DNA of 63,397 nt from an uncultured virus (IMG/VR IMGVR_UViG_3300018411_000016) (Duplodnaviria > Heunggongvirae > Uroviricota > Caudoviricetes), in the IMG/VR virus record IMGVR_UViG_3300018411_000016; one strand, written 5' to 3'. Numbering within the stretch: the stretch's first letter is position 1; each line of letters begins with the position of its first letter. The notes beneath the pieces were generated by a model, which made no database searches, was not told the DNA's origin, and was given only the letters and a program-made list of their open reading frames with translations. Below are positions 1,763-50,246 of this stretch, piece by piece. Position numbers and translations under genes: made by a program.

Positions 1763-1778
1763 TAAAATCAAAAAGTAA

Positions 1779-1815: not shown

Positions 1816-1818
1816 TTC

Positions 1819-2256: not shown

Positions 2257-2299
2257 TAGACCAACTCTTTCTATTGTTTAATTTATTTTATAGTAATAA

Positions 2300-3256
2300 T
2301 TATACTTCAAAGTTATCTTTATTTTTGCCAATCTTGCTTTTGTCTTCCTTAATATAATGTCTGCGAGTAGTGTCGATACTTTCATGGTTCAATAATACCG
2401 AAACTTCCTCCAAAGACATTCCTGCATTCTTCAACAAAGTTGCACCTGAATGTCGCCAATCATGAGGATGAAGAGTCAAAATACCTATCATTTCTCCAAC
2501 TTTTTTAGTCCAATCTGATAAAGAATTTACACCAGCTTGTTTATATTCTCCAGCATATTTTGTAACAAACACATACTTACTATCTATTCCATCAGCTTTT
2601 CGCTGTTCTTGTAATTCTAATAACAATGATTTAACTTCTTTCGAGAAAAACAATGTAACAATTTTTCCTTCTTTCTCAAGAACATCGTCAACCGTTCTGT
2701 TTTCAAAATCTATCTGTTCCCACATAATATTACTTATAGCTGTTACTCTTGCCATTGTAGACAATGATAACATAATATATGTGGTTAATTGTAAATCACC
2801 GTGTTCTTTTAATTTTTCTTTAACTTCATCACATTGTGCTTTTGTAAGAAATGTTTGAACTACAACAGGTAATCCCTTACGAGGTCTTGATAAAAATTCA
2901 CACGGGTTCTCTGTTATTAGCTTTTTTCGTCTAAGGAATTTATAAAAAGCACTAATACTAGCCATTCTTCTTTTAATTCGCTCTGTATTGTTGCCATATT
3001 CTTTGCACATAAAAATCATTTCTTCTATGTCATCTTCTGTTAAATCTTTAATAGATTGATTTCCTTGTTCTTTATATATGTATCTAAACCATGCCTTAAT
3101 GTCGCACTCATAAGAATAAATACTTTTTTCTGATAGTTCTCGCATCTGCATATCTCGTACATATTTTTTCAATAGAGATAAATTTTCTGCATTTATCTTA
3201 TCATCTGTTACTTCTTTTCCAATTTGAAGCAACCGACTACGTTTTACGTTAGCCAA
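2300..3256 (-). CDS. Tyrosine recombinase (XerC/D-like)
   Basis: SAM-like N-terminus; catalytic R (MAR), HPHDWRH, LNH...HY. Confidence 0.9.
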   Translation of the reverse strand: MANVKRSRLLQIGKEVTDDKINAENLSLLKKYVRDMQMRELSEKSIYSYECDIKAWFRYIYKEQGNQSIKDLTEDDIEEMIFMCKEYGNNTERIKRRMASISAFYKFLRRKKLITENPCEFLSRPRKGLPVVVQTFLTKAQCDEVKEKLKEHGDLQLTTYIMLSLSTMARVTAISNIMWEQIDFENRTVDDVLEKEGKIVTLFFSKEVKSLLLELQEQRKADGIDSKYVFVTKYAGEYKQAGVNSLSDWTKKVGEMIGILTLHPHDWRHSGATLLKNAGMSLEEVSVLLNHESIDTTRRHYIKEDKSKIGKNKDNFEV

Positions 3257-3326
3257 ACGACATCACCAACTTTCTCTCTTTATAAAATTCCCTATTTATA
3301 AGGGTTTCAGACCCTTAATTTTCTTC

Positions 3327-3516
3327 TGAAACTCACACGACTAAAGTCGCATGGTTCTTATCTTATTAAACTTCTCTTATACTCTCATTTACGATGTTGA
3401 TTGTATTTTACAACATATAAGAACTAATTAATTGTAATAAGACTTTCACTACCAATCTCTCCAATGAAAGAATTAGCGATAGTATATAGGCTCGTTTCAA
3501 AACCTATTTTTAATAC
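3327..3516 (-). ncRNA. TnpB omega-RNA / IS200-IS605-type right end
   Basis: Non-coding region downstream of tnpB ending in the hairpin ATGCGACTTTAGTCGTGT followed by GAGTTTCA (- strand). Confidence 0.6.
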
Positions 3517-5049
3517 TTATATTCCCATACTGCTTATTAATTTACATCCATTGTTTTTTAATTCTCTTAATCTTGCTATTTCTTTATCATGTAATAATTT
3601 AAAGTCATCATAAGTTTCAAAACATAATTGTCTATTAATTGCTTCCAAATCACTTGAAACATTCATTATCAAGAAAGCAGAATAAAGGTCACGTTGTACT
3701 TCAATATTTTCATTCCATCTGATACTTAATTCTTTCTTATTATATTCATCTGTAAAATGATTATATTGACTAGCTTTAACTTTTTGAGTATTTATCTTTA
3801 ATAACTCTAAGTTATCATATTTAAGTTTACGGTCAATTATATCTAATAGCATAGCAGGTGCTTTATTTGCAAGAGATTTACCAAATCGTTTCTTTTTATT
3901 AAACTTACCATTCTTATCTTTGGTTATATTTTTAGCTCGTTTTTGTAATGCTTGGAATTGCATTGTTTCAACTAATACTCTATCACCTAAAGATATGATA
4001 GTATTTGCCAATCTTTCATGCGATTGTTTCCTAATACACGCTTGCTTTCTTTGAAGTTCTCTTAATTCATTTTGAGTTTTAATATATTTATTGCTCTTAT
4101 TCCACACAAGCTTAATACCATATTTAATAGTACCATTATCATTATAATTATTAGGATTATTTGAACGTCTTTGCCTATCTAATTTTCGTAGTAATATTCG
4201 TTTTTTATGCTCAATATTATCAACTTCTGGACAAAGCTCTAATAATTTTACTTCTGACTTACTAGAATAAGCAATAGTTCTAGTTCCTATATCAATACCT
4301 ATATTACCCAAACCAACATTGTGTTTTATTTCTCCTGTTTTTATATCATATTTTATAGGAGGAACTCCCTCAATCATAAGTTGAACGTAATATTGATACT
4401 TCCCTCGGATTAGCTTTCTAACTATCCTACAAAACTTAATTCTATCTTGAATGGCTTTTTGAGCATAGTAATCTTTTTTATTTATAATTATAGGCAATTT
4501 TAACCCTTGCCATAATATGTACCTATTAAAATATCTCATACCACTTTTATTCCACTTATTCTCTATTGTATTATATTCATTGACTTTATCAAAATTAACC
4601 CCATTGCCATTACCAAAAAGTAATTTGTCAAATTTAGTCCATACTCTATTAGCAATCGCTTGTGCTTCTAAACTGCCAATATTATCTTTAAAATGCTTAT
4701 ACATAGGCTTAACATCTTCATGCAGTGAATATTGTGATAATTCATATTTTAGATAAATTTGATTTAGTTCCTTATACAACGCTTTTCTAGCCTTGATAAA
4801 TTCTCTTGAATGTTTCATATCTTCTGCATATAATGCCTTATTAATTGGTTTTAATGCCTTTTTAATTACATTATATTCTTTACTCTCTAGCATTAGTTTG
4901 TATCTTTTTAAGACCTTATTGGTTAGACTATTTGATATATTCCTTGCAATTTCTAATCTTTTATCTATTACATCTTCTTGGAATTTTTGAGTGTTCAATT
5001 TTAGAGTTAAAACATATGTAGAAGATTTTGATTTAATCACAATATTCAC
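3517..5049 (-). CDS. tnpB: Long TnpB-like RNA-guided endonuclease
   Basis: RuvC-I GIDIGT, RuvC-II VETM, RuvC-III QRDLYSA; no CxxC zinc finger. Confidence 0.85.
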   Translation of the reverse strand: MNIVIKSKSSTYVLTLKLNTQKFQEDVIDKRLEIARNISNSLTNKVLKRYKLMLESKEYNVIKKALKPINKALYAEDMKHSREFIKARKALYKELNQIYLKYELSQYSLHEDVKPMYKHFKDNIGSLEAQAIANRVWTKFDKLLFGNGNGVNFDKVNEYNTIENKWNKSGMRYFNRYILWQGLKLPIIINKKDYYAQKAIQDRIKFCRIVRKLIRGKYQYYVQLMIEGVPPIKYDIKTGEIKHNVGLGNIGIDIGTRTIAYSSKSEVKLLELCPEVDNIEHKKRILLRKLDRQRRSNNPNNYNDNGTIKYGIKLVWNKSNKYIKTQNELRELQRKQACIRKQSHERLANTIISLGDRVLVETMQFQALQKRAKNITKDKNGKFNKKKRFGKSLANKAPAMLLDIIDRKLKYDNLELLKINTQKVKASQYNHFTDEYNKKELSIRWNENIEVQRDLYSAFLIMNVSSDLEAINRQLCFETYDDFKLLHDKEIARLRELKNNGCKLISSMGI

Positions 5050-6921: not shown

Positions 6922-7575
6922 TTATTTCGTAAGGACTGGAATATTACCTTGTGAACTAATGTTATAGCCTAGAGCATCTGCAATATCTCTTATTTTAATA
7001 TAATTAGTACCATTTTTTAAAATTCTATCTACAGAAATTTCTTTGCCATTTACAATCATTTTACTAATTTCAACCACTTCATCATCACCTTCTAATCTCT
7101 TTTTAAATGCAGACCACAGGTCAGGATTTCTTACAAATGGTTCAGGGCAGCGTTTCCCTGTGACTAAATTATGAGTCAATACATTATCTATCGGTATATT
7201 ATACTTTTTCATTAATTCTTTTGTGAGTCCTACTGTATTTGCCACAACTTCGTCTTTAATATAATAAGCACCATTATTATCTTTTCTACTACACATTTCA
7301 ATAGATATACTATTGTGATTTCTGCAATAAGGATGAGCATAATTTTTCGCACCTACAGACCACGCTGTATTATCATCTGATACACTTTGGTAAACACTAT
7401 TTTCGTCTACAAAATAATGTGCCGATGCATTTCTACCACCTGTAGCAAAGTAATTACAATTGCCTTTTGCGGTATCTCCATTATTAGCTGTATAGTGAAT
7501 TACAATATATTGAATTGGCTTTGTTCGACCAAAAGTATAATTGCTGCTATGTGCTAGTTTTCTTTGAATATTCAA
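6922..7575 (-). CDS. N-acetylmuramoyl-L-alanine amidase (Amidase_2) endolysin
   Basis: IVIHYT, ASAHYFVD, SISIE, H...KRCP motifs; TTG start after GGTGA. Confidence 0.9.
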   Translation of the reverse strand: MNIQRKLAHSSNYTFGRTKPIQYIVIHYTANNGDTAKGNCNYFATGGRNASAHYFVDENSVYQSVSDDNTAWSVGAKNYAHPYCRNHNSISIEMCSRKDNNGAYYIKDEVVANTVGLTKELMKKYNIPIDNVLTHNLVTGKRCPEPFVRNPDLWSAFKKRLEGDDEVVEISKMIVNGKEISVDRILKNGTNYIKIRDIADALGYNISSQGNIPVLTK

Positions 7576-7655
7576 TATTGTCACCACTCTTTTTAATAAA
7601 AAAGACACCTTGAAATATAGGTGTCTCTGACTATTTAATTTTATTTATATGTAAA

Positions 7656-11523: not shown

Positions 11524-12013
11524 CTATATCGCATTCTCTGGTAACAATCCATTCTTAACTAAATCTTCTGTTAATGTAGCATTCCCGATTTCCACCCAAT
11601 CAAAAGAGATTGTACATATTCCACCCTTAAATCCATCTTTAGAACTCTCTGATACGTTCTTTGTTATAACTATTTTCTTAACTCCGTTACCATCTTTCAT
11701 TACTTTTGGCTTTCTATTTCTTAAAAACTTTACTACTTTATCAATAAGCTTTCTGTCTCCTAGATAGTCAACATTGACACCATCTTTACCCGTTTTATCT
11801 GCAACAATTACCGCTGAATTGCTACCAGTATCATACTCAAGAATAGTTGAATTTGTCATAGGATATTGTCTTTCTAAAAGTTCTATCTCACTGATATTGT
11901 TTATATGACTTATATCTCCATATTCAACATCATAAAATAATCTATAACTTTCATCGCTATCTACTATCCACAAGCCATCATATTCACATTCTATAGAATT
12001 AACTACAGCATCA
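11524..12013 (-). CDS. Tail/baseplate protein, exon 2
   Basis: Frame stays open upstream of 11973 (DAVVNSIECEYDGLW). Joined to exon 1 it gives GIEG-DAVV and a 299-aa protein. Confidence 0.75.
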
Positions 12014-12015
12014 CC

Positions 12016-12188
12016 GTAACATAAAAGTTATAAAACTTTATAAACATCACATAATTAACTTTTACACTTCTTATTTCATCGTGTTCTCTTTTGTCAATAA
12101 ATATGACTACTCGAGTTGGTATAACACTCCATAAGCGTAAATTCCAGCATACGGTTGCTGTACACATCTAATTGGTAGTTTAAGTTAC
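12016..12188 (-). ncRNA. TnpB omega-RNA / IStron 3' end
   Basis: Non-coding segment after tnpB (GTAC...GGAATTTACGCTTATGGAGTG) running to the right end. Confidence 0.6.
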
Positions 12189-13337
12189 TCAATTAGATTG
12201 TGTCTTATAATTCTTTAAATTCAAAGCTGCATTATAGTCCCTGTCTATAACTAATCCACATTCTGGGCATATATAAGTTCTATCTGATAATTTCAAATCT
12301 TTCTTAATATGACCACAGCATGAGCAAGTTTTAGATGAGGGATACCATCTATTAGCTATCACCAATTCAACACCATTCCATTTACATTTATATTCCAATT
12401 GTCGTCTGAACTCATAAAACCCCTGTTCAGATACGGCTTTAGATAAATGTTTATTCTTCATCATTCCTGATACATTCAAATCCTCTATTATTATTTTTGA
12501 TGGATTTTTCTTAATCAGTGATGAAGTAATATTATGAATTTGATTTAGCCTAATATTAGAAATGTGTAAACGCAACTTTGAAATTTTACTTTCTAGTTTT
12601 CTTAAATTATTTGATTTTCTTAATTTCTGGAACTTGATTTTCGTATCCATACTCTCTTTTATTAAAACCAAATATTGTTTACTTGCTCTTTTTTGAAATC
12701 TTCTTAATCTTTTCTGAATTTTCTTTGAGTTTGCGTGTTTGAAATTTTCTCCATTAGAACAGGTTGCGAATGTCTTCAACCCTAAATCAATCCCTATTGG
12801 TTCAGTTTTAGGTTGATTTTGAATAATATCTGGAACTTTTACACTAACACTAAACCAAAAATCAATTCCATCATAAGATAAGTGATAATTGCAATAATCA
12901 ACATTATCTCCTAATGGAATATTATGTTTATAAGTTGGCATCCAGCCTAATTTTTCACATCTAATTCTTTTTGGTTCTATTATTGTAGTTCCCTCATGTG
13001 TGGCACAAGACATTTTGCTGAATTTTCTGGACTTAAATTTAGGATATTTACTTTGATGTTTGAAAAACCTATCATAAGCTTCAGCCGCATCAAGGATAGC
13101 AGTTTTAGTTGCCCTACCAGAAATATCTTTTAACCAAATATTGTCCTCTTCTTTTTTAAATAAAGTAAATTGTTTAGTTAGATTATATCCTGATATGAAT
13201 TTTCCACCATTCTTATAGTTCTCTTGCTCTTTGGCAATCGCCCAATTATAAGCAAATCTAGCAGCGTGGCAAAACCGTATTATCTTTGATTGCTGTTCTT
13301 TGTTTGGATAAATTTTAACTCTATAACCTTTATACAA
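12189..13337 (-). CDS. tnpB: TnpB RNA-guided endonuclease
   Basis: N-terminal HTH (YRVKIYPNKEQ), GIDLG, IEDL, CSCC...CPEC zinc finger, DRDYNAA. Confidence 0.95.
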   Translation of the reverse strand: MYKGYRVKIYPNKEQQSKIIRFCHAARFAYNWAIAKEQENYKNGGKFISGYNLTKQFTLFKKEEDNIWLKDISGRATKTAILDAAEAYDRFFKHQSKYPKFKSRKFSKMSCATHEGTTIIEPKRIRCEKLGWMPTYKHNIPLGDNVDYCNYHLSYDGIDFWFSVSVKVPDIIQNQPKTEPIGIDLGLKTFATCSNGENFKHANSKKIQKRLRRFQKRASKQYLVLIKESMDTKIKFQKLRKSNNLRKLESKISKLRLHISNIRLNQIHNITSSLIKKNPSKIIIEDLNVSGMMKNKHLSKAVSEQGFYEFRRQLEYKCKWNGVELVIANRWYPSSKTCSCCGHIKKDLKLSDRTYICPECGLVIDRDYNAALNLKNYKTQSN

Positions 13338-13354
13338 TTTAATTCACCCGTTTC

Positions 13355-13576
13355 TTACATCTCTTCTATGTATTCAATCAAGTTCTCTACTTCAACCATA
13401 ACATCATTTTCTTTTATCACATCAGCTATTTCTATTATGCCATCTAAAACATTTAGCATCTTATCCCTCATATCAGGTATAATGAATAGTGTTTCTAATA
13501 AAGCAGATGAAATTGTTATGTATGTATTGGATTGCTCGGTTGCTTGTTCTGTTTGCTTGTTTGATTGATTAGTCAT
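13355..13576 (-). CDS. Small acidic protein, LLET family copy 2
   Basis: Paralogue of 5070-5291 with an identical leader TTAGTCATATTAATCTCTCCTTTGTATTATGGTT. Confidence 0.75.
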   Translation of the reverse strand: MTNQSNKQTEQATEQSNTYITISSALLETLFIIPDMRDKMLNVLDGIIEIADVIKENDVMVEVENLIEYIEEM

Positions 13577-13732
13577 ATTAATCTCTCCTTTGTATTATGG
13601 TTTCTAGTTGTTTCTAACTGTTACTAACCATAATATAACATATTAGTTTCTAACTGTCAATATATTTTTCTAAAAATTATTTACTTTTTTCAAAATATAT
13701 AGTACAATACAAATATAAAGGAGGCTGATAGT

Positions 13733-13888
13733 ATGCCAATAAATAAAGATAAACAAGTTTCCGCTTCTGTTATCTTAGATAAAAAGATTTACGATGAATT
13801 TAAGAAAATTTGTTCAATAGAAAAACGAAGTGTGTCTTCTCAGATTTCTCTGTTAATTGAAAATTTTATCAAGAATTACAATATTTAA
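13733..13888 (+). CDS. CopG/Arc-like ribbon-helix-helix protein (51 aa)
   Basis: Not in ORF track. AGGAGG RBS; MPINKDKQVSASVILDKK...EKRSVSSQISLLIE; GTTTCTAAC repeats upstream. Confidence 0.75.
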   Translation: MPINKDKQVSASVILDKKIYDEFKKICSIEKRSVSSQISLLIENFIKNYNI

Positions 13889-14014
13889 TTTTCCGTATAT
13901 ATATACCACATACCAAAGTGATATATATATTTTAATTATGTTTAATTTATTTTATATAACTTTTATGAATTTATTTATGTTCGCAAAACATAAACGCAAT
14001 TTCTGTCACCATAA

Positions 14015-14463
14015 TTGCCACTCTCTTTCAAGACGTGCGTAGACTATTTGTTCATCCTTATTCAATATAAGGAGTCAGATTTTTCTTCCACCATTATCTA
14101 TTGTCATAGATTGCATTGTGGCTTTACTCTCCCATTAGGAGATAGTCGTTGAAAGTTCCTCATCGTCTTTACGTTAAGAGGAGTCTCTGCATGAACAGGG
14201 ATTATTAAAACACTTAGGACTATACTGCCTTGTATAGCTTTTATTTCACCTTATGTCATCCTTACGTTTTTTCTACTTTCGTACCATTACCGTATTAGTT
14301 TTCACTATCCGTTTTGGCGTAAGGCTTTACCCATTACCTGCATTTAACCTGAAACACTCACCAGTTACCTGATAAGCGAGGCTTTCTGTTAGCTGGCATT
14401 TAAAACTTATAAATATTGTTAAGTTTTATAACATTTTATAAGTTATTGCTAACAGATTTGTTA
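14015..14463 (-). ncRNA. Group I intron catalytic core of the IStron
   Basis: P (TAAATGCAGGTAA), Q (CATGCAG), R (TTCAACGACTA, about 14143-14153), S (ATAGTCT, 14041-14047). Confidence 0.85.
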
Positions 14464-14873
14464 CCCTCAATTCCCTGTGATACAGGAAATACAGCATACT
14501 CATAATCATCTAAGCTATAAGCAAGTCTGTCTACAACTGTATATAATTTAACTTCTCTGCTATATGTCATTTCCTCAATAAAAATCCAGTCCAAATCACC
14601 CTTTAGCCGTTTTTTAAACCTAACTAATTCTATTTCGGTGTCTGCTTGCTGAATATTGCCACATTCAAACGTGTTGTCAAAAGTAGCAAGAAAGATTGTA
14701 TTCGTTCCCCATTCTTTTTTGACTGTTGAATATGTCATAGTAGCATCATTATCAGCAAAAATTTCATCATATATACCTTTGTTAAACCTCACATAATTAA
14801 AAGCATATGGTGATAATCGTGTATCAAATTGGCTATCAGGCATACCACCAAAATTGTCATATCCTATAATCAT
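14464..14873 (-). CDS. Tail/baseplate protein, exon 1
   Basis: FN3-like YEYAVFPV ending at ...GIEG, which continues in exon 2. Confidence 0.75.
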
Positions 14874-22900: not shown

Positions 22901-24278
22901 AAACGTCTATGCCTAATGATATTTTAACATCATCAGAACTTACATTTAAAATTGAAGATATCGCATTTACATATTCATCTACCTGTGCTTTATAATCTTC
23001 AGCAGACATATTAGCACTATCTAAGGATAATAAATCAGATATTGCACTTTGTACGTTATCTTTATTTTCCTTAATAGGTACAATAAGATTACTAAAAATC
23101 CAATCTTGCATTACACCATCATCATATTCAAATTTAGATGGGTCTAAAGCACTTGACAATGCACTAATAGCACCTTGTTGCTCATTGTTTAAGTCAGCAT
23201 AAGTTGTACTGTTGTCTAAATATGCTTGTGTAACAGAATTGACTCTACCTTGAACATCTTCTTGTTTTGCTAAGAGAGTAGTTCTTTTTGCAACTAAGGC
23301 ATTTATCTTATCTTGATATTGCTGTTGTTCAGCCAAAGTAGCATTTTCTCTAAGAGCATATGACTCGGTTACACCATATCCACTAGCATTTTTAACTGTT
23401 GATTTTGATACGTTGCTGTCTTTTAAAACTTTCTTAGCACCAGTAGTTACAGGGACATTAGCACCAGTCATCAATTTTATGGCTGTGTTGATGTCATCTA
23501 TATCTTCTTTTACTTGTTTCGTTTCATTTTTTACACCTTTGAATATATCATCAGCGTTATTCAATACTTCTTGATTAGCTATTCTCTGTTGTTCTTTTAA
23601 TGCTTCATTAAGTGCTTCTACATTACCTTTATTTTTGAGAATAGCATTTCCTTGTTCATCATAACCACTAACCATTGTAGGAAACATACTTGCAATTTGA
23701 GTAGTTATTTCGTGATAACGCTTGAACTCTTCCTCGGTTAGTGATATATTATTACCAAAGGTATCTACACCAGTTGCCAAGTCTTTGTATTCATCTTTTA
23801 AGGTTGAAATAGTATCAGCGTTAGATTTCAAGGTATTCTGACTATCTTTAAATGTAGTTACTAATTCTTTAGATTTAGTGATTGACTCTTCTATTGACTG
23901 CTTGTATTTCTTGTTGATGGTAATAATCGCAGCAATCGCAGCAGTCGCAGCAAGAGTAACCGCCAAATATGGATTAGCTAATATAAAAGCGTTCAGTCTA
24001 GCTTGTGCTGTGGCAAGAAGGTTAGTGGCTGTTACATTTCCATATTTTGAAGCTGTGTTGGCATTGTTAGCCATAGTTTCATTTATAACTTCTGTTGTAT
24101 ATCCTTTTTTTACTAAGGTTTCCGCAATTTGTTGTTTTGTACACTTTGCAGATGTCATAGCTAATACAGTTTGAGATGCTGATAATTCTTTTGTTGTTGT
24201 TGCTAAAATTGCAATATCTCCATTAGCTGCCCTAATAGCATCTAAATATGTGCTGACCTTAACAAAAGAGGTAAGTAC
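19977..24278 (-). CDS. Tape measure protein, exon 4
   Basis: Long coiled coil with a C-terminal FATGG...HGT...PERVL motif; no RBS at the track start; in frame with exon 3. Spliced product is 2223 aa. Confidence 0.85.
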   Translation of the reverse strand, partial: VLTSFVKVSTYLDAIRAANGDIAILATTTKELSASQTVLAMTSAKCTKQQIAETLVKKGYTTEVINETMANNANTASKYGNVTATNLLATAQARLNAFILANPYLAVTLAATAAIAAIITINKKYKQSIEESITKSKELVTTFKDSQNTLKSNADTISTLKDEYKDLATGVDTFGNNISLTEEEFKRYHEITTQIASMFPTMVSGYDEQGNAILKNKGNVEALNEALKEQQRIANQEVLNNADDIFKGVKNETKQVKEDIDDINTAIKLMTGANVPVTTGAKKVLKDSNVSKSTVKNASGYGVTESYALRENATLAEQQQYQDKINALVAKRTTLLAKQEDVQGRVNSVTQAYLDNSTTYADLNNEQQGAISALSSALDPSKFEYDDGVMQDWIFSNLIVPIKENKDNVQSAISDLLSLDSANMSAEDYKAQVDEYVNAISSILNVSSDDVKISLGIDVSYNQVSTMLNDLKQRVSSDVYSMLADLPIEDLKFAYEINNIGSMTWDDILGKIKELKDKSKVEIKVDTSLQGVLTNIASVSTGLDKLNGIWKDVEDKKSFDFSSLVSKDFVDEFGNLGSAYEDFISTVSKTPDNLDATKSAFDRLVGAYLNSKNALNGVTEETKAQAIAALESQGITNAEVIVQEYLEAQLDETGKSMLEYRLAKETANGSVLDSTSDIENLISLVEALGGASYALQRFAQLKANVAKGEEMMANAGSSEERYNAGAYMKKINEGYMTDITGSALSEVKKALNGTTVTMPTYGGNAANNDNKKETSSKDKTDEELSKIIDSIQKKSEEIDSKISLLKEQLSFEELVGNTENINKINEQINSLLKSKPETLSQSQKELELLKKKYTSEENIATIEEAIESNQSEYMSARTEGLQSDIDLVNAKYEAEEEGYEQTRKYIDFIRNQSPEVSIQALNFNTDEISVIDKQLAEKEFTIQAYLKLGLTENSDTVKEIRDSIVDLEQEKYDIKLDNIELSFNLEKAVLDDVDTLKNQIQTAINLAMANDNTDLQLDLQKKIEVLNGESIKNIGEHVKLLQQQRSAEGVTAEEYIEYTTEINDLLSQQSSLISDQISLIEGQAAIFAEKEVYGKNGQDEWETKNEAEIQAIQDQIDALDKLNDKKKEETEIEDKLLEIQKLEAKLQELQANKTVKILKKNEDGSWQWDYIADYEEVAETEEEISDKRLELQEIYDEQSLAQQKAALEAEIELLEQAKVDKQSEYDEQYKDYVKSHVDILNEDASFNNELNESIETGFATISATIDTKMSDMNTTYNDGMYNIYTTVRNYMEMIRAELDSVDGVDIDATATSSTISGLPSLSATTGFATGGLNTSTGWQLLHGTQSSPERVLSSAQTEAFESLVYKAMPEIAKSAEILSNLTNTNSTQSGDSIGINIAKIELPNVKNGEQFAQELTNIAKGLTQKAKLKSAKG

Positions 24279-24348
24279 CAGACTGATTAATATAATAATG
24301 GTTGAAATCATTACATTAAAACTAACACATATGTAAAGGAGTTATGCT

Positions 24349-24651
24349 ATGGATAAATTTTGTAGCCGTTGTAAAAAAGATACTGAACATTCTGTATTTA
24401 CTACTGATAATCGAGCAACTTATATATGTACAATTTGCGGATATGTTGAAGATATTTTTGTTAGTGAAACATTACAACAAGAATGGTCTGCTCAACAACA
24501 ACCTAACCTACCTAAGTGTCCCAAATGTGGTTCTACTGCAATATCCACTGGTGCTAGAGGATTTAATCTAATGTCAGGTATGTTAGGTGCTAGTAAAACT
24601 GTTAATCGTTGTGCTAACTGTGGTCATACTTGGAAACCAAATGGTAAATAA
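24349..24651 (+). CDS. Double zinc-ribbon protein (intron cargo)
   Basis: CSRC/CTIC and CPKC/CANC pairs; AAGGAG RBS. Confidence 0.75.
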   Translation: MDKFCSRCKKDTEHSVFTTDNRATYICTICGYVEDIFVSETLQQEWSAQQQPNLPKCPKCGSTAISTGARGFNLMSGMLGASKTVNRCANCGHTWKPNGK

Positions 24652-24662
24652 GGAGTATTGTT

Positions 24663-25025
24663 ATGAATAAAAATGAAGAGATTGTTCTAAAACATTTACT
24701 TAATCTTCCTCAAAATAAATACGAAGCTAACCATGTACGAATTGGTGCTGGTCAATACAATATCGAAAGACTAACACCAGAACAAACCATTTCTATACTA
24801 TTGTCATTACAAGACCAAAACTATATTCAAACACATTTTTATGGTTCACAATCATCTGACTCTGTTTGTGAAATAACTCTTACTGCATCTAGCCTAAACT
24901 ATTTTGAACATCAACAAACTCAAACCAAAACTAAGATATTTAGTAGTATTTGGGATTTTATCAAATTTATAACTCCTACAATTATTTCAATTATAGCATT
25001 ATTAAAAAGCTACGATGTCGTTTAG
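24663..25025 (+). CDS. Hypothetical protein with C-terminal TM helix (intron cargo)
   Basis: AAGGAG RBS; FITPTIISIIALL. Confidence 0.7.
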   Translation: MNKNEEIVLKHLLNLPQNKYEANHVRIGAGQYNIERLTPEQTISILLSLQDQNYIQTHFYGSQSSDSVCEITLTASSLNYFEHQQTQTKTKIFSSIWDFIKFITPTIISIIALLKSYDVV

Positions 25026-25156
25026 TGAGCAAAACTTACAAACAGTGCTATTAAAGAAAATGACAATGATAAACAAAAAGACCAATCTAGCTCTCTGTTT
25101 GATTGACTGGTTTGTTTTGTGAATAACATTGTTGCTGCATATTTAATATGTTTCAT
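25022..25156 (-). CDS. Small membrane peptide (44 aa)
   Basis: Not in ORF track. AAGGAAG RBS, hydrophobic C-terminus. Confidence 0.35.
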   Translation of the reverse strand: MKHIKYAATMLFTKQTSQSNRELDWSFCLSLSFSLIALFVSFAH

Positions 25157-25181
25157 TTTATATCTTCCTTTCGTCCATAAT

Positions 25182-25212
25182 AAAAAGAAGCCATCTATTA
25201 AAATGACTTCTT
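25182..25212 (-). terminator. Intrinsic terminator inside intron 3
   Basis: GAAGTCAT/ATGGCTTC stem followed by TTTTT on the - strand. Confidence 0.65.
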
Positions 25213-25223
25213 CTTGTTATTGT

Positions 25224-25382
25224 TTATATGTTTTCTATTTTGTTTATTAATTCTTGAACTTCAGACAAAGTGCTTGTATCTCTATTATCATATGATATAT
25301 CATGAACACCATACAAAATATTAAGCAATTCTTCCTTAGCATCTGGCATAAGACTTATTGTTTCCAATAATTCGTTACTCAT
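25224..25382 (-). CDS. Small acidic protein, LLET family copy 4
   Basis: Not in ORF track. MSNELLETISLMPDAKEELLNILYG...; TAATG overlap with the antirepressor stop. Confidence 0.7.
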   Translation of the reverse strand: MSNELLETISLMPDAKEELLNILYGVHDISYDNRDTSTLSEVQELINKIENI

Positions 25383-26200
25383 TATGCCACCTCAATTTCT
25401 TTGATTTTTGAAAGTAAGGTAGCAGTATTGAATTTATCAAGCATATCTTTCTTTTTCATTAACTTATATATGTATTGTAATCCTTTTGGACTAACCATTG
25501 TTACACTTGAAATATGTCCACTTTCAGTTGTTGAAGTAATCACTTTAAACATCCCATTATTATTAAATCTACCATATGGAACATTGTAGTTACTTTGTTT
25601 AGTAAGAACTTTACATTTCCTAAGAAAAGCCAACAACGTATTTCTTCCTATCTTAACCATTGCAGATATATCTAAGAATTGTAAATAACCGTCAGCTTCC
25701 ATCAAGTCCATATAAGCCTTAGCTTTGGGTTCTAAATCTGCAATTTGTTTCTTATAAAGTTCATTCTGCTCTCGCAAATCTTGAACCATTGATAGTTTAG
25801 TTTCTTCTGTGAATGATGGAAAATATTTTTCAATAAATTCGCCTTCACGATTAGTTTCTACTGCACCGCCAGTTAGCCTAATCTGCTTGAGATAAGCTTT
25901 GATTTCTTTCTTCATCTGTTTAGCAATAGGCTTACGAGAATTCATACATGCTTCATACAAGCCATCTTCTGTGAGAAAAAGAACATCTCTTTTTTGACCT
26001 GAATGTACTATTGTTCCATTCAGCTTTTCATCTTCTTCTACACTACTTATCATTTTGGTTGTATGAGTATGTTCAATCCAATTTGCAACATCTATAACTA
26101 AAAATAACGGATTTTCAATACTGCCATACATTTCAATTTTCTTACCTAAAATTTCTACTTCTGCTACCACTTCTAACACGTTCTTTTCTTCTGTTCTCAT
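25382..26200 (-). CDS. Phage antirepressor (Bro-N + KilAC/ANT)
   Basis: PLFLVIDVA, FLTEDGLYE, IRLTGG, PKAKAY, GRNTLLAFLR, VSPKG. Confidence 0.9.
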   Translation of the reverse strand: MRTEEKNVLEVVAEVEILGKKIEMYGSIENPLFLVIDVANWIEHTHTTKMISSVEEDEKLNGTIVHSGQKRDVLFLTEDGLYEACMNSRKPIAKQMKKEIKAYLKQIRLTGGAVETNREGEFIEKYFPSFTEETKLSMVQDLREQNELYKKQIADLEPKAKAYMDLMEADGYLQFLDISAMVKIGRNTLLAFLRKCKVLTKQSNYNVPYGRFNNNGMFKVITSTTESGHISSVTMVSPKGLQYIYKLMKKKDMLDKFNTATLLSKIKEIEVA

Positions 26201-26313
26201 ATTAATTCCTCCTAAAAATATAGTTGATATAGTTTTAGAAGTATGATAATATTAAGATGTAAGTTTTATGTAGACAGTCCTTAACTCGCCAAAGTTAAAT
26301 GCAGGGCTGTCTT

Positions 26314-26508
26314 TTATTTGCCATTTTTAAGTCTTTCTCCTATTTTATTAACTGCTTCAAGGCTGAATAAATAAGTTCTTTTCCCAGCGTCTCTCATTTC
26401 GTACTCATTCAAATCAATAGAACGAGCAATTTTAATAATATAATTAGGAGACATATTAAATTTATCGGCAACCTCTTTTGTAATGAAGACATTTCTCACA
26501 TCTGTCAT
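26314..26508 (-). CDS. Small HTH DNA-binding protein
   Basis: FITKEVADKFNMSPNYI; GGAGG RBS. Confidence 0.7.
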   Translation of the reverse strand: MTDVRNVFITKEVADKFNMSPNYIIKIARSIDLNEYEMRDAGKRTYLFSLEAVNKIGERLKNGK

Positions 26509-26830
26509 TTCCATACCTCCTTTTGTTACTATGACCATATTACTACATAGGAGTTAGGATGTCAATACAAATATGAAAAATATTCCAATTATTTTAACAC
26601 AACAAAAAACCCTTCCCTAGTTGGAGGTTTTTTGTTATCAAGTTTGTTTATTCAATTTAAGATGTTGCGAAAACAGTTCTTTTATATTATAATAAATATT
26701 GCAAGCAGAAACCGAACATTTTATTTTAGCTATATAAGATGGTTAGGCGGTTGAGTCACATCAGAATAGTGATATTCTGTTTATACATAGAAATCCTTTA
26801 CGGAAATACATAAGAAAAGGATGATGTGAA

Positions 26831-26923
26831 GTGACAATTTTTGTTTCAATTATTTACGGAATAATTGGTAGCATAATAGCTACATATATTGTTCGGATTA
26901 TAGATAAAAGAACACAAAAATAA
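26831..26923 (+). CDS. Type I toxin-like hydrophobic peptide (30 aa)
   Basis: Not in ORF track. MTIFVSIIYGIIGSIIATYIVRIIDKRTQK: one TM helix plus basic tail; AAAGGA RBS. Confidence 0.7.
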   Translation: MTIFVSIIYGIIGSIIATYIVRIIDKRTQK

Positions 26924-27024
26924 CCGCCCTCGCCAAAGTACGGTTACTTTTGTTAATTTTTTAAGTTAGCTTAGTTTCAAATCTATGGCTCAACCGTCTA
27001 ACGGTTTCTGTTTGTATTTATACA
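26915..27024 (-). ncRNA. Putative type I antitoxin RNA
   Basis: TTGAAA-17-TATAAT promoter at 27031-27059; TAACCG hairpin + U-tract terminator; convergent with the toxin 3' end. Confidence 0.65.
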
Positions 27025-27556
27025 ATATCTATTATACAGAGTTTTCTCTCTCATTTCAATACTTTTTTATACTTTTGTTATGTTTTCCATGATAACAATA
27101 GTTTATAATCTATTTTATGTATTTTTCTATCAACGTAATACACATACGTTCAACCTTGATTAGAAGTAAAGGATAGTTCTCTACTAATAGTTTCCACCTA
27201 ATCTGTGGCTCAGTCCCGACTGTCTATTCACAATATGCTTTTTCATACATAAAGTGCAACCCTAGCAGTCCGTGGGGTTAGGTCTTTATACAAAGAACCT
27301 GTCACCTGCTGACCATCCGAAGTTCTAAACTTTTACTATACTTATAATGTCACCACTATAAGGGAGTGTTAGAGTTTTTACGGAATACCCAGCCACATTA
27401 CTATTACTGTGTGCGTAGTATCAGTACGCCATATCTGTTGTTTAATTTATATTTTAAATATAAAACCCAATACCTAAACTTATACTTCGCATAAGAACTA
27501 TATTGGTGTCGATGTACTCTTTGTATTTGGGGACAACTGTTTTTATTGTTTGCCCC

Positions 27557-27868
27557 ACCGACATTTTTAAACGCTGCAAATGCTAATCCTACACTTCCAA
27601 GAACGGGAACTAAACCGCCCATTTTATCAGTAAGTTCTAACACTTTTGTCGTTAATTCAACTATATTATTTACAGTATCAGAAGTTAATGTTTTGGTAAA
27701 AACGCCCTCTAATGTAGCTTTTAATGTATTTAATTTGGCTTCTGTACTTTCCATATAAATACCATATCTGTCTACAGCTAAACCATTTGAGTCAAGTGAC
27801 TTGGTGGTTAAATCTGTTGCCATAGACATATTATCCATCAATACAAGGAAATTCTCACGTTGTCTTGT
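27557..27868 (-). CDS. Tape measure protein, exon 3
   Basis: TRQRENFLVLMDN...FKNVG; 104 whole codons. Confidence 0.85.
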
Positions 27869-29420
27869 CGTTTATGTTATATATGTTTGCTATACATATA
27901 CGTTTTGTTGTTTATTTTCGTATTCATATTTAAATATGTATTTGTGTCCTTTAGTATTATCTCTCTTATGTAGTAATACATTTTTTATAAATGTTGTGCT
28001 TGTAATTCCTATATCTTCCATAGCATCTTTTAATTTCGTATATGCTTTAATTATATTATTATTTTTATCAATTTCGTAAAATGTTTTTATATGATTTTGA
28101 GCAAAAACAGGGATTTTATAATTACCATTATCATAATGTTCCTTTCTAATCCATGCGAAACCATGGTAACACACAACATTGTCATGTGTTACTGTTTTCA
28201 TTGTCGGTTTAAATCCTAATTTCTTTTGTGCTTGACTTTGATTTTTAAAACATTCTAAAAATTCTCCATCCATTGTCATTTGAACTATTTCATATGATTT
28301 AGTGACCACTTTAATAAAATTATATGGTAGTTCCACTTTTTTATTTTTAATCATATTACTTATCAATGTTTCTGTCACATTTAATTCTCTTGCGACTTGT
28401 ACTATCGGTGTATATTTGTTTAATTTTTCTTGTACTTCTGAAAAAGAGAATTTATATTTATAAAATGTGTTTAAATCACTATACGAACTTATGTCTATAT
28501 TCCCAAACAACTTCATAGCTACATTTTCTACCAAGTCTATTCTATTATCATATGACATAAATTGATAGCCATTGTTGATTGCAAACTGTCGTTTTTCATT
28601 ATCAAAATCTTCTCGACCATCATGATATCTTGATTGAAATTCGATAAGTGTGTTCTTCCCTTTTAAATTGGGTATAAACAAATCATAACAACTCGCTCTT
28701 CCTTTTCTTCCTTTAAATCCAATGTCATATTCAATTTTACTGCCAACATAAATAGCTTTTGCTATAGTTGCTATGGTTGCGTGTAAATGAGAAACAGATA
28801 ACTTATTACCACAATAAGGGCATCCATATTGTCTTTCGTTTTTTGACATGCAATTACTTGCTCTATCAAACTCTTTTCCACATTGTATATGTCTTATTTT
28901 TAACCACGTTTCATTTCTTTTTGTATCTTTTCTTATTTTATAAAATATATCTACCAGCTCTAGTTCATTTGTTTCTTCAACTCTACGTTTCCATTCTTCA
29001 AATGAAACCTTGCTCCTAGGTAATTTACTGTTTAATTTTTCTATTTGAATCATCTCTCTTTTGTATAAACAACAAAACTCTTATGCTTTTACATAAGACC
29101 AGACTATATCTTCACCCTCGATTAAGGGGCAGGATTTTCCATACTTTAGCATAAGCATGTACTCTACTCACTTCGTCTAATTTTAATTAGCTTATTCTCT
29201 TAGTTTATAAGAGTTAAATTTATTATCGTTTTCGTTAGTCGTTGAACCTATATCCTATCTATACGACTTAGATATGTGGCTGCTAATTGCCCAATTCATA
29301 TAATTTTTTACTATCACGCATACCGTTTCCAATTACGTTGTAGTTTATATGACTCTAAGGGGTTTCTAGCAATTTACCCTGTTCTATATATGTGTTACCA
29401 CATATTCAGGCTAGAAATTA
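27869..29420 (-). ncRNA. Group I intron 2 of the tape measure gene (1552 nt)
   Basis: P1 CAGGU/GCCUG with U.G; TCAACGACTA and GATATAGTC core; ends in G; join gives LAG|TRQ. Confidence 0.9.
27890..29053 (-). CDS. Intron-encoded homing endonuclease (Vsr/EDxHD-like, zinc ribbon, NUMOD1-like repeats)
   Basis: CGKEF...CPYCG, YDLFIP...IEFQSRYHD, IVQMTMDGEFL; lies in the 3' part of intron 2. Confidence 0.75.
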   Translation of the reverse strand: MIQIEKLNSKLPRSKVSFEEWKRRVEETNELELVDIFYKIRKDTKRNETWLKIRHIQCGKEFDRASNCMSKNERQYGCPYCGNKLSVSHLHATIATIAKAIYVGSKIEYDIGFKGRKGRASCYDLFIPNLKGKNTLIEFQSRYHDGREDFDNEKRQFAINNGYQFMSYDNRIDLVENVAMKLFGNIDISSYSDLNTFYKYKFSFSEVQEKLNKYTPIVQVARELNVTETLISNMIKNKKVELPYNFIKVVTKSYEIVQMTMDGEFLECFKNQSQAQKKLGFKPTMKTVTHDNVVCYHGFAWIRKEHYDNGNYKIPVFAQNHIKTFYEIDKNNNIIKAYTKLKDAMEDIGITSTTFIKNVLLHKRDNTKGHKYIFKYEYENKQQNVYV

Positions 29421-29651
29421 ACCTGCTAAGGATTTTGAAATCGAAGCCCTCTCTGCCTCATTTAAGTCTCCCCACTTTAATGAAAGGTCTGAAATTACAT
29501 CACTAAAATCACGAAACTCTGTTTCTGACTCCATTAATGCCACACCAACATTTTCAAGTGTTTTTCTTACATTACTTACTACTGTTCCATCTTCAACAAA
29601 ATCCCCAATTTTAATATCTTGGTAACGTGTGAACATGGTTTTTAAACTTTC
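29421..29651 (-). CDS. Tape measure protein, exon 2
   Basis: ESLKTMFTR...FRDFSDVI...SLAG; 77 whole codons. Confidence 0.88.
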
Positions 29652-30105
29652 CTTTGACATTTGCTGTTATTCGCTAAATAACAACCTTGTTTATAGTAAT
29701 TCTTTTAATTTACCAATAACAGGCTCACATCTTTCATATGAGAATAGACCATATCTTCACCTTCACCAGTATGTGTTAAGGGTACACTTTTTCCATTTAA
29801 GGGATTTTCACCCACTCTAAGCGATTGAGCCGTACTCCTATTGACGAGTTTACGTCTTGTCGGATGGTCGTTGAACATTACTTTATTCAAGTCTTTGCTG
29901 CTGATTTCCCATTGTAATAATACTTAGGACTATATTTTCATATAGCTTTTATTTCACCATATATCATCTATGTTATTTTTTCTGCTTTCGCAACATTCAC
30001 ACATAAGTTTATTTCATCTTTATGTTGTAGTTAACATAGCTTTAGTAGATTCCAGCAATTTAATGTATTTCATGCACACATTTCTGTATACACAGGCAAA
30101 AATTT
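29652..30105 (-). ncRNA. Group I intron 1 of the tape measure gene (454 nt)
   Basis: P1 GGGU/GCCU; AAATTGCTGGAA, AATCAGCAG, TCAACGACCA, GATATGGTC; ends in G; join gives ETVG|ESLKT. Confidence 0.9.
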
Positions 30106-31932
30106 ACCCACTGTTTCTGAAGATTTCCTTGTTACTGACTCAATTGTACCAATATAGCCAATCAATGTATCCATATCAACACCAGCCATTTGTGCTGATT
30201 TAGCCGTTCTTGACATGGCTATACTTAACTCAGACATTGACGATGCACTACTATTGTCTACTGCAACAAGCTTATCTATAACGGATATTGAATCTTTTGC
30301 AGCTACATTATAACCATTTACGGCAGACGTTAAGTAATCTGTCATAGATGAAGTTTCTGTTCCTGATAGCTTTGCTCCCATTACGGCAGCGTTAATTAAG
30401 GTTTGTGTTTCCGCTATACTCCTACCCTGTCTTGTAAATTCAACAGCAGAGTCCATAATCTGTTTAGTAGTTGCACCTATCGTCTTACCTAATTCGTTAT
30501 ACTCATCACGTAACTTCTCTACACTGTCAGCACTCATACCGTTTACAAGACGTATATCTGTCATAGATGCGTTAAGTTCATTTACAGTAGATACCATTTC
30601 TTTCATAACACGCCTAATTGCCATTAATGGAGTGCCTATCATTAATAACTGTGCCAGACCTTTAAATGCTGTAGACAATGTACTCATTGCTCTACTTTGT
30701 GCTACAAGTTTATTCACTTCACTTGTTGCTAATTTGGCAGCATTACGGAAACCAACTGTACCAGCTTCTACTTCTTTTAATCTTGCCACCATCTGCTGAA
30801 CATTTTGTAGTTCGCCACTATTAATAAGTTTATTGCCTTGTAACAAGGATAGCTTTTGTTCTAAACTATCAATAGCAACTTTCTTGTCAACTAATGCTTT
30901 AGATGCTTGTTCTTCTGCCTTAGTTTGAGCGTTAGCAGACGTAGACGCACTTTGTAACCCCTTGGTATAATTGTTAAGGTCATTATTTAAAACAGCTAAT
31001 CCAGCCCTATACTCGGCTGTAAGTGGGTTCATTTGTTGTAATGCGGTTATCTGTGATTGTAGTCCAGAAGTTGTATCCGCATTACTAAAACCACCATACT
31101 TACTATTCGCATCAGAAAGTGCAGTCTGTATTTTTTGTATAGCAATTTGCTGATTAGTTAGTGCGACTAATTGTTTGTTATTATTGGCTGTAGTCTGTTT
31201 GTCAAGGTCGTTAGTTGCTCTTGTTAACTGATTTACATATTCCAATCTTTGTTTCTCTGGAATATTTGTAAAATCCGTTTTATATGTACCGTCTTTGCCA
31301 TACATAATGCTTTGCATTCGAGTAACATATTCTTCAATTTTAAGACTACCATTCTTATAAGCTGTTACTGTATCATCAAGTGCTTTTTGTAAGCCAGACA
31401 TTTGTGATGTATTTGTTGTTGTATTTCCAACAGACGCAATTTTTACTTTTACTTCTTCAACCTTTGAACTTATCCTATCTAAAGCATATTCCCATGTGCC
31501 AGTATCTTTATTTAAAGAACCTAATACATTGTAATTAGAAAGTTCCTTCAGGTTACCTTTTAAACTCTCAACCTTAACATTAAATCCAGATATATTACCG
31601 CTATCATCAAATATCTTATTTACACTTTTAACATTACCAATCTGCTTTAATTCCGAAAATATGCTTTCAAGATTTTTTGATAATCCTTGTATCTGTTTAA
31701 TGGTATTATCTAAGGATTGAAATTCTAACTTTTGACTTGAAACTTTTTTAGCTTTAGATTGAATATCACCGAAAACACTTTCTATAGATGCTTTGAAATC
31801 ATCAATATTAAGAGATATTTTTACATTTTTTAATTTTTCTTGAATTGTTGTTATCTGATTGTTGATATTAGATATACTTTTTGCCTCGTCTAGCATAGCA
31901 GATAACAGTATATTTAATTCGTCTTCTCCCAC
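30106..31932 (-). CDS. Tape measure protein, exon 1 (TP901-type core)
   Basis: Coiled coil, then EFTRQG...DKLVAVDN...IGTI..VTRKS. Confidence 0.9.
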
Positions 31933-48679: not shown

Positions 48680-50246
48680 TTAGTCGTTATTTGAAAAACA
48701 TTTAAGAAAATTTTGTGGATTTATTTCATATAATATTTTTAACAGCATTGATTTATTTGTGTCTATTGTTGATTGCATTTCTTTTTTGTGCCTTTTAGCA
48801 TCTGAAGATATAATAAATGCTCTATCTATTAACCAACTCATTAAACCAAGATAATTTTTAGATATATATATACCTTTAATTTCTTTAATCAAATTACTAA
48901 AATCTTTTCGTAACAGTATGTATTCTTCATCATCGCCCGTTGTATTATAATTAAATAAATTCAAAGAATAGCTAGAAATTATTTCTTCAACCTTTTTACA
49001 AGTTTTCCTGTTTTTATCTAATTCAAACTTTTTGAAAAAATATAACATTGGTAAGGTTGAGTCTTTGTCTCTAAACTTCTCTACATTCAACGAACACAAG
49101 TAATTCATAGGGCATTTTAATTTCTTATTAATTCGTTTCTTGTTAAAGTCTTTTTTAACAATGCCCCAAAAATCAGGATAACCATTTTTAGATATATCCA
49201 TGTCTTTTTTTATTCGTTTAATTTCTTCTACTAAGTCAATATCAAATCTACGTTTGGCATTATCTATAGCTACTTGAGCTAAGACAGAAAGTATGCAAAC
49301 ATAATCTATGTATTTCTGGTCTTTAAAATTATATGTATATGTTTGTGCTATTTGAGCCAAATTACTTGTTTCTCCAATAGCAGAACTTGCACTTGCTAAA
49401 TTATTATCCACTTGAGCATAATCACTCATTGTATTACCATACATTGTTGTTTCTTTTGGTATATTGTTAATTATTGTAGGATAGTCGAGATAACACATTC
49501 TTGCATGTTCTACAATATCTAATTGATTAGTACAATAACCTGAATCTGAATCTTGGTCTGAGCCATTGTTGCGGTCTTGAAAATCTGTACCAATCATATT
49601 AACTGCAATTATCTGTTTCCCAAAATTAAAATATTTTTGCAAGTTATCGCTGTATACATTATGTAAATATGTTAAATTATTTTTACTATTAAACGGACTT
49701 CTAAAGAAAGCAAGATAATCTCCATTATCAAATCTTTCTGTATAACATTGAATTGTACCTTGCTCATAACAGAATGTGTCATCAATATCTACATTTTTTT
49801 CTGCTCCAGAAGTAGCATATAATAACATAGCATATGGAGAACCGATAATAACTAAGTTTTCGGCATTTTGAATTATTTTGCCTGTTTTTAAATTAAAGGT
49901 GTAAACTTCAACAATTCTTTTCTTTCTATCTCTAAAATATTCACTTCTTACAAACTCCATGTTTTGTTCACATAAGGCAACTAATACATCATAATCGTTT
50001 GAAAAATTACTATTTTTCCTTAGGTAATCCAAAAATACATTATTGTCAGTCTTTAGCTTATTTATATAGCCAATACTTTCTTTAACCACATTTTCCATAA
50101 TATCGTTGTCCAAAGAGTTTACCATTTGATAACTCATTTTCTGTACATCACCTAATTTACTTTCGTGAGCAGTCTTAACTATCCCAAACATACAGTTGTT
50201 TTCATAAACTCTTTCGCACCAGTAATCATAGGATTTATTAAATTTG
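48680..50246 (-). CDS. YonO-like single-chain (two-barrel) RNA polymerase, exon 2
   Basis: FRSP, NNGSDQDSD metal-binding motif, IGETSN, AIDNAK. Confidence 0.85.

Follow-up and report, generated by a model that had tools for sequence, protein, structure and literature searches.

A probable group I intron with a gene island as cargo in the tape-measure gene of an uncultured SPbeta-like phage

The window analysed is a stretch of 63,397 nucleotides (nt) from an uncultured Caudoviricetes virus (IMGVR_UViG_3300018411_000016), in which the tape-measure gene lies on the minus strand. The segment 27556-24279 of that strand is read here as the third group I intron of one tape-measure gene of 2223 amino acids (aa) in an SPbeta-like phage, an intron that would be spliced in cis and would carry a gene island as cargo; a probability of roughly 60% is given to this reading. 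Its structural part, namely a group I intron that ends at a 3' splice site at 24279 and encloses a gene island, is well supported, and the element is probably a real intron of IStron-like architecture with the cargo at its 3' end, whereas splicing and the 'neutrality' of the insertion are what we infer from the sequence.

The window is the late region of a Firmicute phage or prophage that resembles SPbeta, with all late genes on the minus strand and in the same order as in SPBc2 (polymerase-like gene, DNA-binding protein, exonuclease, terminase, portal, head and tail genes, tape measure), and YomI-type relatives were found for the C-terminal part of the tape measure. The tape-measure gene is in four pieces (31932-30106, 29651-29421, 27868-27557 and 24278-19977, minus strand), each a multiple of three in length. 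Once joined, the exons amount to 6672 nt and encode 2223 aa without an internal stop, with the junction between exons 3 and 4 reading FKNVG|VLTSF in frame, as the original prediction had proposed. Restoration of the host gene on intron removal, by which group I introns are recognised, is thus seen here. The Pfam profile PhageMin_Tail is also divided, its positions 1-136 ending open reading frame (ORF) 30070-31932 and its positions 137-201 beginning in ORF 29418-29660. The exons flanking intron 3 are the following.

27557..27868, minus strand: exon 3, 104 codons, the last 7 bases being the 5' strand of P1
19977..24278, minus strand: exon 4, 1433 codons followed by the stop, its first 6 bases pairing with the guide (P10)

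The start of exon 3 was set by relatives lacking intron 2 (..AG|[VI]RQRENF..) and its end by four relatives that depart from homology at ..VG|GA... The 1433-codon frame of exon 4 is intact, and its counterpart in a relative from run X4 is an ORF of 1425 aa with 75% identity. An uninterrupted tape measure of 2457 aa (L011) was used as a reference, on which exon 3 extends to about residue 244 of the compared segment and the start of exon 4 falls, by extrapolation, at about residue 253; the two exons are neighbours on this protein, and no part of it is missing.

The proposed splice sites are defined by P1, P10 and P9.0, which are intact at 7, 6 and 7 base pairs (bp), respectively, and lie exactly where they had been predicted. 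The 5' exon ends with UGUCGGU (27563-27557), and the guide consists of GAGUAC (27519-27514) followed directly by AUCGACA (27513-27507, minus strand). GGACUGA (27216-27210) starts one base after the 3' strand of P7 and has its partner at the far end of the intron, after which exon 4 opens with GUACUU (24278-24273), the partner of GAGUAC in P10.

24279..24286, minus strand: 3' end of intron 3, made up of the P9.0 3' strand UCAGUCU (24286-24280) and the terminal G (24279)

In a scan for the 3' site, the six bases that precede the P1 guide served as the P10 guide, and the seven bases from one base after P7 as the P9.0 strand. G24279, which had been predicted as the 3' splice site from 3.3 kb away, was the only one of the 568 G's over the 3.4 kb that follow the core to score 13/13 for P9.0 plus P10, the runner-up scoring 8, and it is the exact point at which the tape-measure frame resumes. 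A terminal G with P9.0 and P10 at the 3' splice site, another mark of group I introns, is therefore present. P1 and P10 alone are modestly significant, since under a generous null (81 in-frame U|..G| junctions, with the first 120 intron bases shuffled) some guide of 13 bp was reached in 71 of 2000 shuffles; the real sequence contains one further P1 plus P10 match, which is spurious and rich in G.U pairs. A pairing of UCAGUC at the 3' end with the 5' strand of P7, instead of with J7/9, is possible but less likely, as the nearby CAGUC, set beside J8/7, is the better partner for P7. A cut one base early, as in group B IStrons, was rejected, as it breaks the frame with G24279 as the last intron base.

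The ribozyme was delineated from a minimum free energy (MFE) fold, a sequence descriptor and helices recognised by eye, with the following parts.

27130..27556, minus strand: ribozyme part of intron 3
27556-27529, minus strand: P1 extension hairpin
27519-27507, minus strand: guide
27506-27467, minus strand: P2
27463-27447, minus strand: P2.1
27393-27389/27312-27308, minus strand: P4 (GCUGG/UCAGC)
27387-27314, minus strand: P5 region
about 27306-27274, minus strand: P6, by eye
27272-27266/27222-27217, minus strand: P7 (GACUG/CAGUC) with bulged G27271
27265-27257, minus strand: P3 3' strand, by eye and weak
27256-27229, minus strand: P8
27216-27210, minus strand: P9.0 5' strand
27208-27194, minus strand: P9
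27185-27165, minus strand: P9.1
27150-27132, minus strand: P9.2-like hairpin

The unconstrained MFE fold of 27570-27160 already contained P2, P2.1, P4, P5, P7, P8, P9 and P9.1, with a z-score of -2.8 against shuffles. P7 presents the canonical arrangement (C27272-G27217, bulged G27271, then G27270-C27218), in which we take the G-C pair, by Tetrahymena numbering, to be the guanosine site. With P3 and P6 recognised by eye, the core helices P3-P8 stand in canonical order together with the G-binding pair of P7, its bulge and J8/7. The other introns in the window have GACUA/UAGUC in P7, from which the GACUG/CAGUC of intron 3 departs in the last pair, on both strands.

The site of intron 3 was found to be shared with other phages. 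Four database proteins (P0074-P0077) are 67-76% identical to exon 3 and all depart from homology at the same point, their tails matching intron 3 in different frames (FLCEV in frame 2, TVVP in frame 1 and SYAKYKFRYW in frame 0); such conservation of nucleotides without conservation of frame fits a structured RNA. The inferable guide letters of P0075 and P0076 are compatible with an exon 4 starting with Val-Leu or Val-Phe; their peptides lead to a predicted guide of xAAYAC or UNAUHC, which would pair with an exon opening with GU(A/G)UU. Two contigs from run X4, one of which encodes the C-terminal ORF P0002, are colinear with exon 4, with 25180-25861 and with 26678-31924 (360 differences in 5247 bases), while 24065-25180 is swapped for 1088 other bases and 26263-26678 is skipped. 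The core and the toxin-antitoxin region are thus kept in X4. What has been replaced is some of the cargo together with the region of the 3' splice site and exon 4 up to about codon 70, in agreement with a divergence of P0002 that is limited to its N-terminus. The expectation of conserved ends with variable cargo was borne out in this one relative, where the layout is kept with ~1.1 kb of cargo replaced and ~0.4 kb skipped. Small contigs from run X6 span 27472-27654 (exon 3 and intron) and 26899-27280 (core and cargo), and freshwater, chicken-gut and landfill runs show the interrupted layout again. The C-terminal ORFs P0002, P0003 and P0004 start 0-7 residues from the equivalent of the exon 4 start; P0002 and P0003 have a single M at that point, and the ORF of the window has MISTIIILISL upstream of the junction. 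Apart from these, no close relative was found when the region was compared with phage records (megablast and blastn) or when exon 3 was searched by tblastn. Single-protein scans of viral and genome contigs, a scan of P0077 against viral contigs, a second scan of genome contigs and a search of viral contigs with three DNA patterns (core and P2) gave nothing, and profile scans yielded only distant relatives with 23-35% identity. As a separate observation, ~30 database proteins of 1543-1667 aa (P0014-P0044) are tape-measure ORFs with only the C-terminal part and start 8-87 residues ahead of the equivalent of the exon 4 start; split tape-measure genes seem, from these sequences, to be common in this phage group.

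The same data bear on an alternative in which there is no intron and an island of moron genes separates two independently translated tape-measure genes, the pairings being coincidental. The lack of an Rfam match, the 1444-aa ORF opened by ATG 24311 and the many database homologues that consist of C-terminal ORFs of 1320-1667 aa would agree with it. However, this account leaves the core helices, the P7 and J8/7 signature and the uniqueness of G24279 without cause; the N-termini of the ORFs upstream of the junction vary between relatives, no AGGAG-type ribosome-binding site precedes ATG 24311 (by eye), and conservation of the 5' intron sequence persists through frame shifts. An arrangement without an intron is accordingly regarded as hardly credible.

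Two other introns interrupt the same gene.

29652..30105, minus strand: intron 1, RF00028 at 24.3 bits and E 0.005 (Rfam match 29726-30115)
27869..29420, minus strand: intron 2, RF00028 at 64.2 bits (29080-29430), with a 387-aa ORF at 29053-27890 after the core

The junction of intron 1 (..ET[VI]G|ESLKT..) was taken from relatives, and the two halves of PhageMin_Tail flank this intron. Because P0075-P0077 encode exons 1-3 unbroken, the junctions of introns 1 and 2 are fixed. Intron 2 is missing from P0074-P0077 and intron 1 from P0075-P0077, which makes intron 3 the most widely conserved of the three. At the thresholds applied, the 387-aa ORF (27890-29053, minus strand) had no match among the families of Pfam, PHROG, NCBIfam and PADLOC, and it gave one sub-threshold match to DUF7836; a CxxC...CxxC zinc finger, a possible PD-(D/E)XK-like motif and helix-turn-helix (HTH)-like repeats were noted by eye, and the ORF may encode an undescribed homing endonuclease.

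The ribozyme of intron 3 accounts for ~430 nt, and the cargo occupies ~2.84 kb between the P9.2-like hairpin and the 8-base 3' tail. It comprises six or seven genes unrelated to mobility, which lie on both strands and have promoter-like sites and terminators of their own. The components that had been described in the prediction (an operon with HTH and antirepressor genes, two genes on the opposite strand and a type I toxin-antitoxin pair, of which the small hydrophobic ORF was located) were recovered.

26600..27120, both strands: type I toxin-antitoxin-like module, by its anatomy
25178..26565, minus strand: Xis-like/antirepressor operon, promoter-like site 26565-26537, terminator ~25220-25178
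26314-26538, minus strand: Xis-like HTH protein, 74 aa (PHROG excisionase, 3.6e-6)
25382-26200, minus strand: Bro-N/KilAC antirepressor (Pfam ANT 1.3e-17, Bro-N 3e-10; PHROG anti-repressor 7.8e-38)
25224-25382, minus strand: 52-aa ORF, last gene of the operon
24349-24651, plus strand: double zinc-ribbon protein, 100 aa (Zn_ribbon_Nudix at 27.5 bits, just above the cut-off of 25.6)
24663-25025, plus strand: 120-aa ORF, an opposite-strand gene

The toxin-antitoxin-like module contains a hydrophobic ORF of 30 aa (26831-26923, plus strand) with a Shine-Dalgarno sequence and, upstream, a TTGCGA-17-TATAAT site (26665-26693, plus strand). A convergent small RNA is predicted from TTGAAA-17-TATAAT (27059-27031, minus strand, 11/12 of the consensus) to a hairpin-plus-U terminator at ~26953-26914, and an inverted repeat of 17 nt (88%) joins 26742-26758 and 26986-27002. 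No family of Pfam, PHROGs, NCBIfam or PADLOC was matched by the module; its anatomy fits a 3'-overlapping type I toxin-antitoxin pair, a kind known from SPbeta. The terminator hairpin of the antirepressor operon has a predicted energy of -17.6 kcal/mol (z -6.9). Both plus-strand ORFs are preceded at 7-8 bases by AGGAG (direct repeat D8), and other zinc-ribbon families stayed below the Pfam cut-offs for the 100-aa protein. The 52-aa ORF is homologous to a 73-aa ORF located just upstream of a TnpB gene elsewhere in the window (13358-13576, minus strand; 36% over 50 residues, pairwise E 8e-10), so that the same small gene is present in two intron cargos of one phage. Neither a transposase, as IStrons carry, nor a nuclease of the GIY-YIG, HNH, LAGLIDADG or other families, as homing introns carry, was detected among the seven cargo ORFs with Pfam, PHROGs and NCBIfam, which bears out the predicted lack of a homing endonuclease; PADLOC found no defence family in the cargo, and 24279-27556 has no terminal inverted or direct repeats suggestive of a transposon border.

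In the working that is proposed for intron 3, the cargo genes would run in the lysogen from their own sigma-70-type promoters, fenced by hairpin-plus-U terminators, and after induction the late operon would be transcribed across the whole element. The ribozyme would fold as soon as it is made and hold exon 3 through P1. On emergence of the far end, P9.0 (UCAGUCU with GGACUGA), formed beside P7, would place G24279 into the G-binding site, the GUACUU of exon 4 would pair with GAGUAC (P10), and the exons would then be ligated. The intron would in this manner shelter accessory genes within an essential gene, as IStrons shelter a transposon.

Several observations weigh against this interpretation. 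Scans of 23800-30400 and of 27120-27620 with RF00028 gave no match at intron 3, although hits up to E 10 were admitted; the original prediction had set beforehand an Infernal fit of the core as something on which it would stand or fall, and with Rfam this fit failed. Little weight attaches to this negative, since at E<=10 the TnpB-bearing element is likewise missed by Rfam at its core (14430-13990), in which textbook R and S elements are recognised by eye; both misses probably arise because the RF00028 model lacks the P7 pseudoknot and relies on sequence of the GACUA/UAGUC type. In favour of a group I core, the descriptor of J8/7 and P7 (GAANANA plus NNGUC, with a complementary GACNN 15-140 nt upstream, after AC) matched the window five times, always on the minus strand, at 29113, 29758 and 50339 (the RF00028 introns, one at the gathering score and two below), at 27229 (intron 3) and at 14053 (the TnpB element). 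In 200 dinucleotide shuffles it gave a mean of 0.02 matches, with any match in 3 of the 200, although the descriptor was composed after the sequences had been seen and is therefore a summary and not a blind test. P3, recognised by eye, is weak, its two A.G mismatches being flanked by 3 pairs and by 4 pairs. As a separate result, comparison by blastn of the intron 3 core with 15 fetched loci gave nothing, whereas the cores of introns 1, 2 and 4 and of the TnpB element were matched there, and intron 3 was misaligned when the five cores were aligned with MAFFT. At the 3' splice side, the comparison with relatives is one of proteins. In intron 2, which is firmly established and has 1.2 kb between its core and its 3' splice site, no comparable P9.0 and P10 are seen by eye, so that long pairings are no general rule in this phage.

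The U.G wobble at the 5' splice site of group I introns is nearly universal. The pair at the cut site is here U27557-A27513, as the original prediction had cautioned, and the U.G pair at this position is called critical in the passages concerned of the IStron study (PMC4227781). The codon that includes the base opposite the splice-site U is His (CAU) in the window and Arg in P0076 and P0077; as all Arg codons have G in second position, the protein sequences point to a U.G pair in these relatives and to a G-to-A change in this copy. Such a change supports the assignment of P1, yet it raises doubt about the splicing efficiency of this copy, which may be spliced more slowly than in P0076 and P0077. 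The natural U-A variant beside relatives with G offers a ready test of the importance of the wobble pair in vivo.

The last objection concerns transcription, as three hairpin-plus-U terminators lie on the sense strand between the core and the 3' site (~26914, ~26599 and ~25178; energies of -18.9, -16.7 and -17.6 kcal/mol), for each of which none of 200 shuffles folded as well. The late genes of SPbeta form one operon transcribed by YonO, which is described in passages of PMC5467207 as highly processive and little given to pausing. A gene at the yonO position of the window shows weak similarity to YonO (BLASTP E 0.016-0.033), and it is plausible that the phage polymerase would read through the three terminators, although those passages do not test termination. 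The intron might instead act as a conditional gate, the terminators stopping read-through by the host polymerase and exon 4 being joined only when the processive late polymerase crosses all 3.3 kb, or through a second RNA that carries the 3' tail and is spliced in trans by the 13 bp of P9.0 plus P10. This is considered distinctly unlikely; if it were true, the protein that sets tail length would be tied to the lysis decision, with toxin-antitoxin and antirepressor cargo expressed in the lysogen from within an essential late gene.

Outright trans-splicing was also evaluated, with an RNA of exon 3 and ribozyme ending at the first terminator, a second RNA of exon 4 and the intron tail, and the unusually long P9.0 and P10 joining the two. 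We know of no natural group I trans-splicing in bacteria or phages. The positions of the sense terminators and the 13 bp of pairing, of intermolecular grade and exactly at the 3' site, would suit this arrangement, and engineered ribozymes whose separate ends are brought together by a duplex of the P9.0 type are reported to work in the passages concerned of PMC11417360. A consensus scan of the minus strand of 25178-24279 nevertheless found no promoter-like site from which the second RNA could start, and read-through by a processive phage polymerase is the simpler account, so that splicing in trans appears very unlikely.

It is unlikely, though less so than the preceding alternatives, that the intron is dead in this copy, the build-up of cargo, the terminators and the G-to-A change having stopped splicing, which would leave a broken tape-measure gene in a defective prophage or an evolutionary dead end. 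The U-A pair at the cut site, with G in P0076 and P0077, the three strong terminators in the sense direction, a search that found no RNA run containing the stretch, and the presence in the window of an invertase, two integrases and transposases would all agree with decay. Mobile genes of this sort are frequent in decaying prophages. Against decay, P1, P10 and P9.0 are all intact, exon 4 retains 1433 open codons while the 75%-identical relative keeps 1425, the interrupted layout recurs across the freshwater, chicken-gut and landfill runs, and the structural module, with its terminase, portal, head and tail genes, appears complete.

The layout has more precedent than the original prediction implied. 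What appears new is the size and nature of the cargo (six or seven genes, on both strands, each set with promoters and terminators of its own), and not the layout as such, since group I introns of tape-measure genes (PMC2504315) and the IStron layout (PMC4227781) have been published, as the relevant passages of both papers indicate. Nothing similar was found among the top results of a literature search, which is no proof that the arrangement is unpublished. Three sites in the tape-measure genes of Bacillus cereus-group prophages are occupied by the group I introns TMP-IVS1, IVS2 and IVS3 (Tourasse and Kolsto 2008, PMC2504315, in the parts consulted). Resemblance to those introns extends to several introns in one gene, to P1 and P10 adapted to each site and to sporadic presence, here of introns 1 and 2. 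They belong to IA1/IA2 and occur with or without endonuclease remnants, and the passages concerned (PMC2504315) describe no multi-gene cargo; the core of intron 3 has no room for P7.1/P7.2, because the gap between P7 and P8 is 9 nt.

In the IStrons CdISt1 and BcISt1, a 5' ribozyme is followed after P9.2 by the inserted genes, with the 3' splice site past the cargo, whereby splicing renders the insertion harmless, as set out in the corresponding passages of Tourasse et al. 2014 (PMC4227781). Intron 3 shares with IStrons the 5' ribozyme, the cargo after P9.2 and the distal 3' site, but differs from them in having neither TnpA/TnpB or another transposase nor prominent flanking inverted repeats, and in a cargo predicted to be transcribed independently. 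The sunY (nrdD) intron of T4, with an ORF insert of ~1 kb, is reportedly a case in which the remote 3' junction is chosen by P9.0 and P10 (attributed to Michel et al., 1992). That intron contains one endonuclease ORF, whereas the insert of intron 3, at ~2.8 kb, comprises several transcription units as well as internal terminators. Engineered circularisation by cis-splicing, as presented in parts of PMC11417360, uses a duplex beside the terminal G to pick a distant second-step site over a long coding insert; as in intron 3, sequence just after the core pairs with distant sequence next to the terminal G, but the system described there is artificial, was tested in vitro and is free of internal terminators and antisense genes.

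If intron 3 is indeed spliced, a self-splicing RNA can carry a whole, independently regulated gene island inside an indispensable phage gene, and introns would join the known sites where phages keep and exchange accessory genes. This would explain the frequent split annotation of tape-measure genes in large Firmicute phages and would represent a natural choice of a 3' splice site over ~3 kb by extended P9.0 and P10, which is relevant to the design of splicing-based RNA tools.

Other mobile elements were recorded in the window. A fourth group I intron (50306-50541, minus strand; RF00028 at 39.7 bits, E 2e-8) is accompanied by an HNH/NUMOD4 endonuclease ORF (50481-51035) and splits a PHROG 8308 gene (48680-52133, minus strand; profile positions 25-330 and 348-811), which occupies the yonO position by synteny with SPBc2 and has weak colinear similarity to YonO; the probable late polymerase would therefore itself need splicing. 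A serine invertase, a tyrosine integrase and a TnpB-like transposase of 510 aa lie at 374-5049, beside the lysis genes (endolysin 6922-7608), and this segment may be a prophage end or a further mobile insertion. The TnpB-bearing, IStron-like element (11974-14436, minus strand) splits a tail gene, with positions 1-144 of PHROG 27355 in ORF 14436-14873 and positions 156-296 in ORF 11524-11973. It contains the group I-like core (~14430-13990, by eye), a ribbon-helix-helix-like ORF on the plus strand (by eye), the 73-aa ORF, TnpB (12189-13337; Pfam OrfB_IS605 and Cas12f1-like TNB) and a RAGATH-18 RNA (12068-12135, 71 bits). Intron 1 (29939) and this tail-gene element (~14225), both on the minus strand, have in common a second S-like stretch (..AAAAGCUAUA..UAUAGUCCUAAGU..) in a peripheral domain, and their ribozymes therefore seem related.

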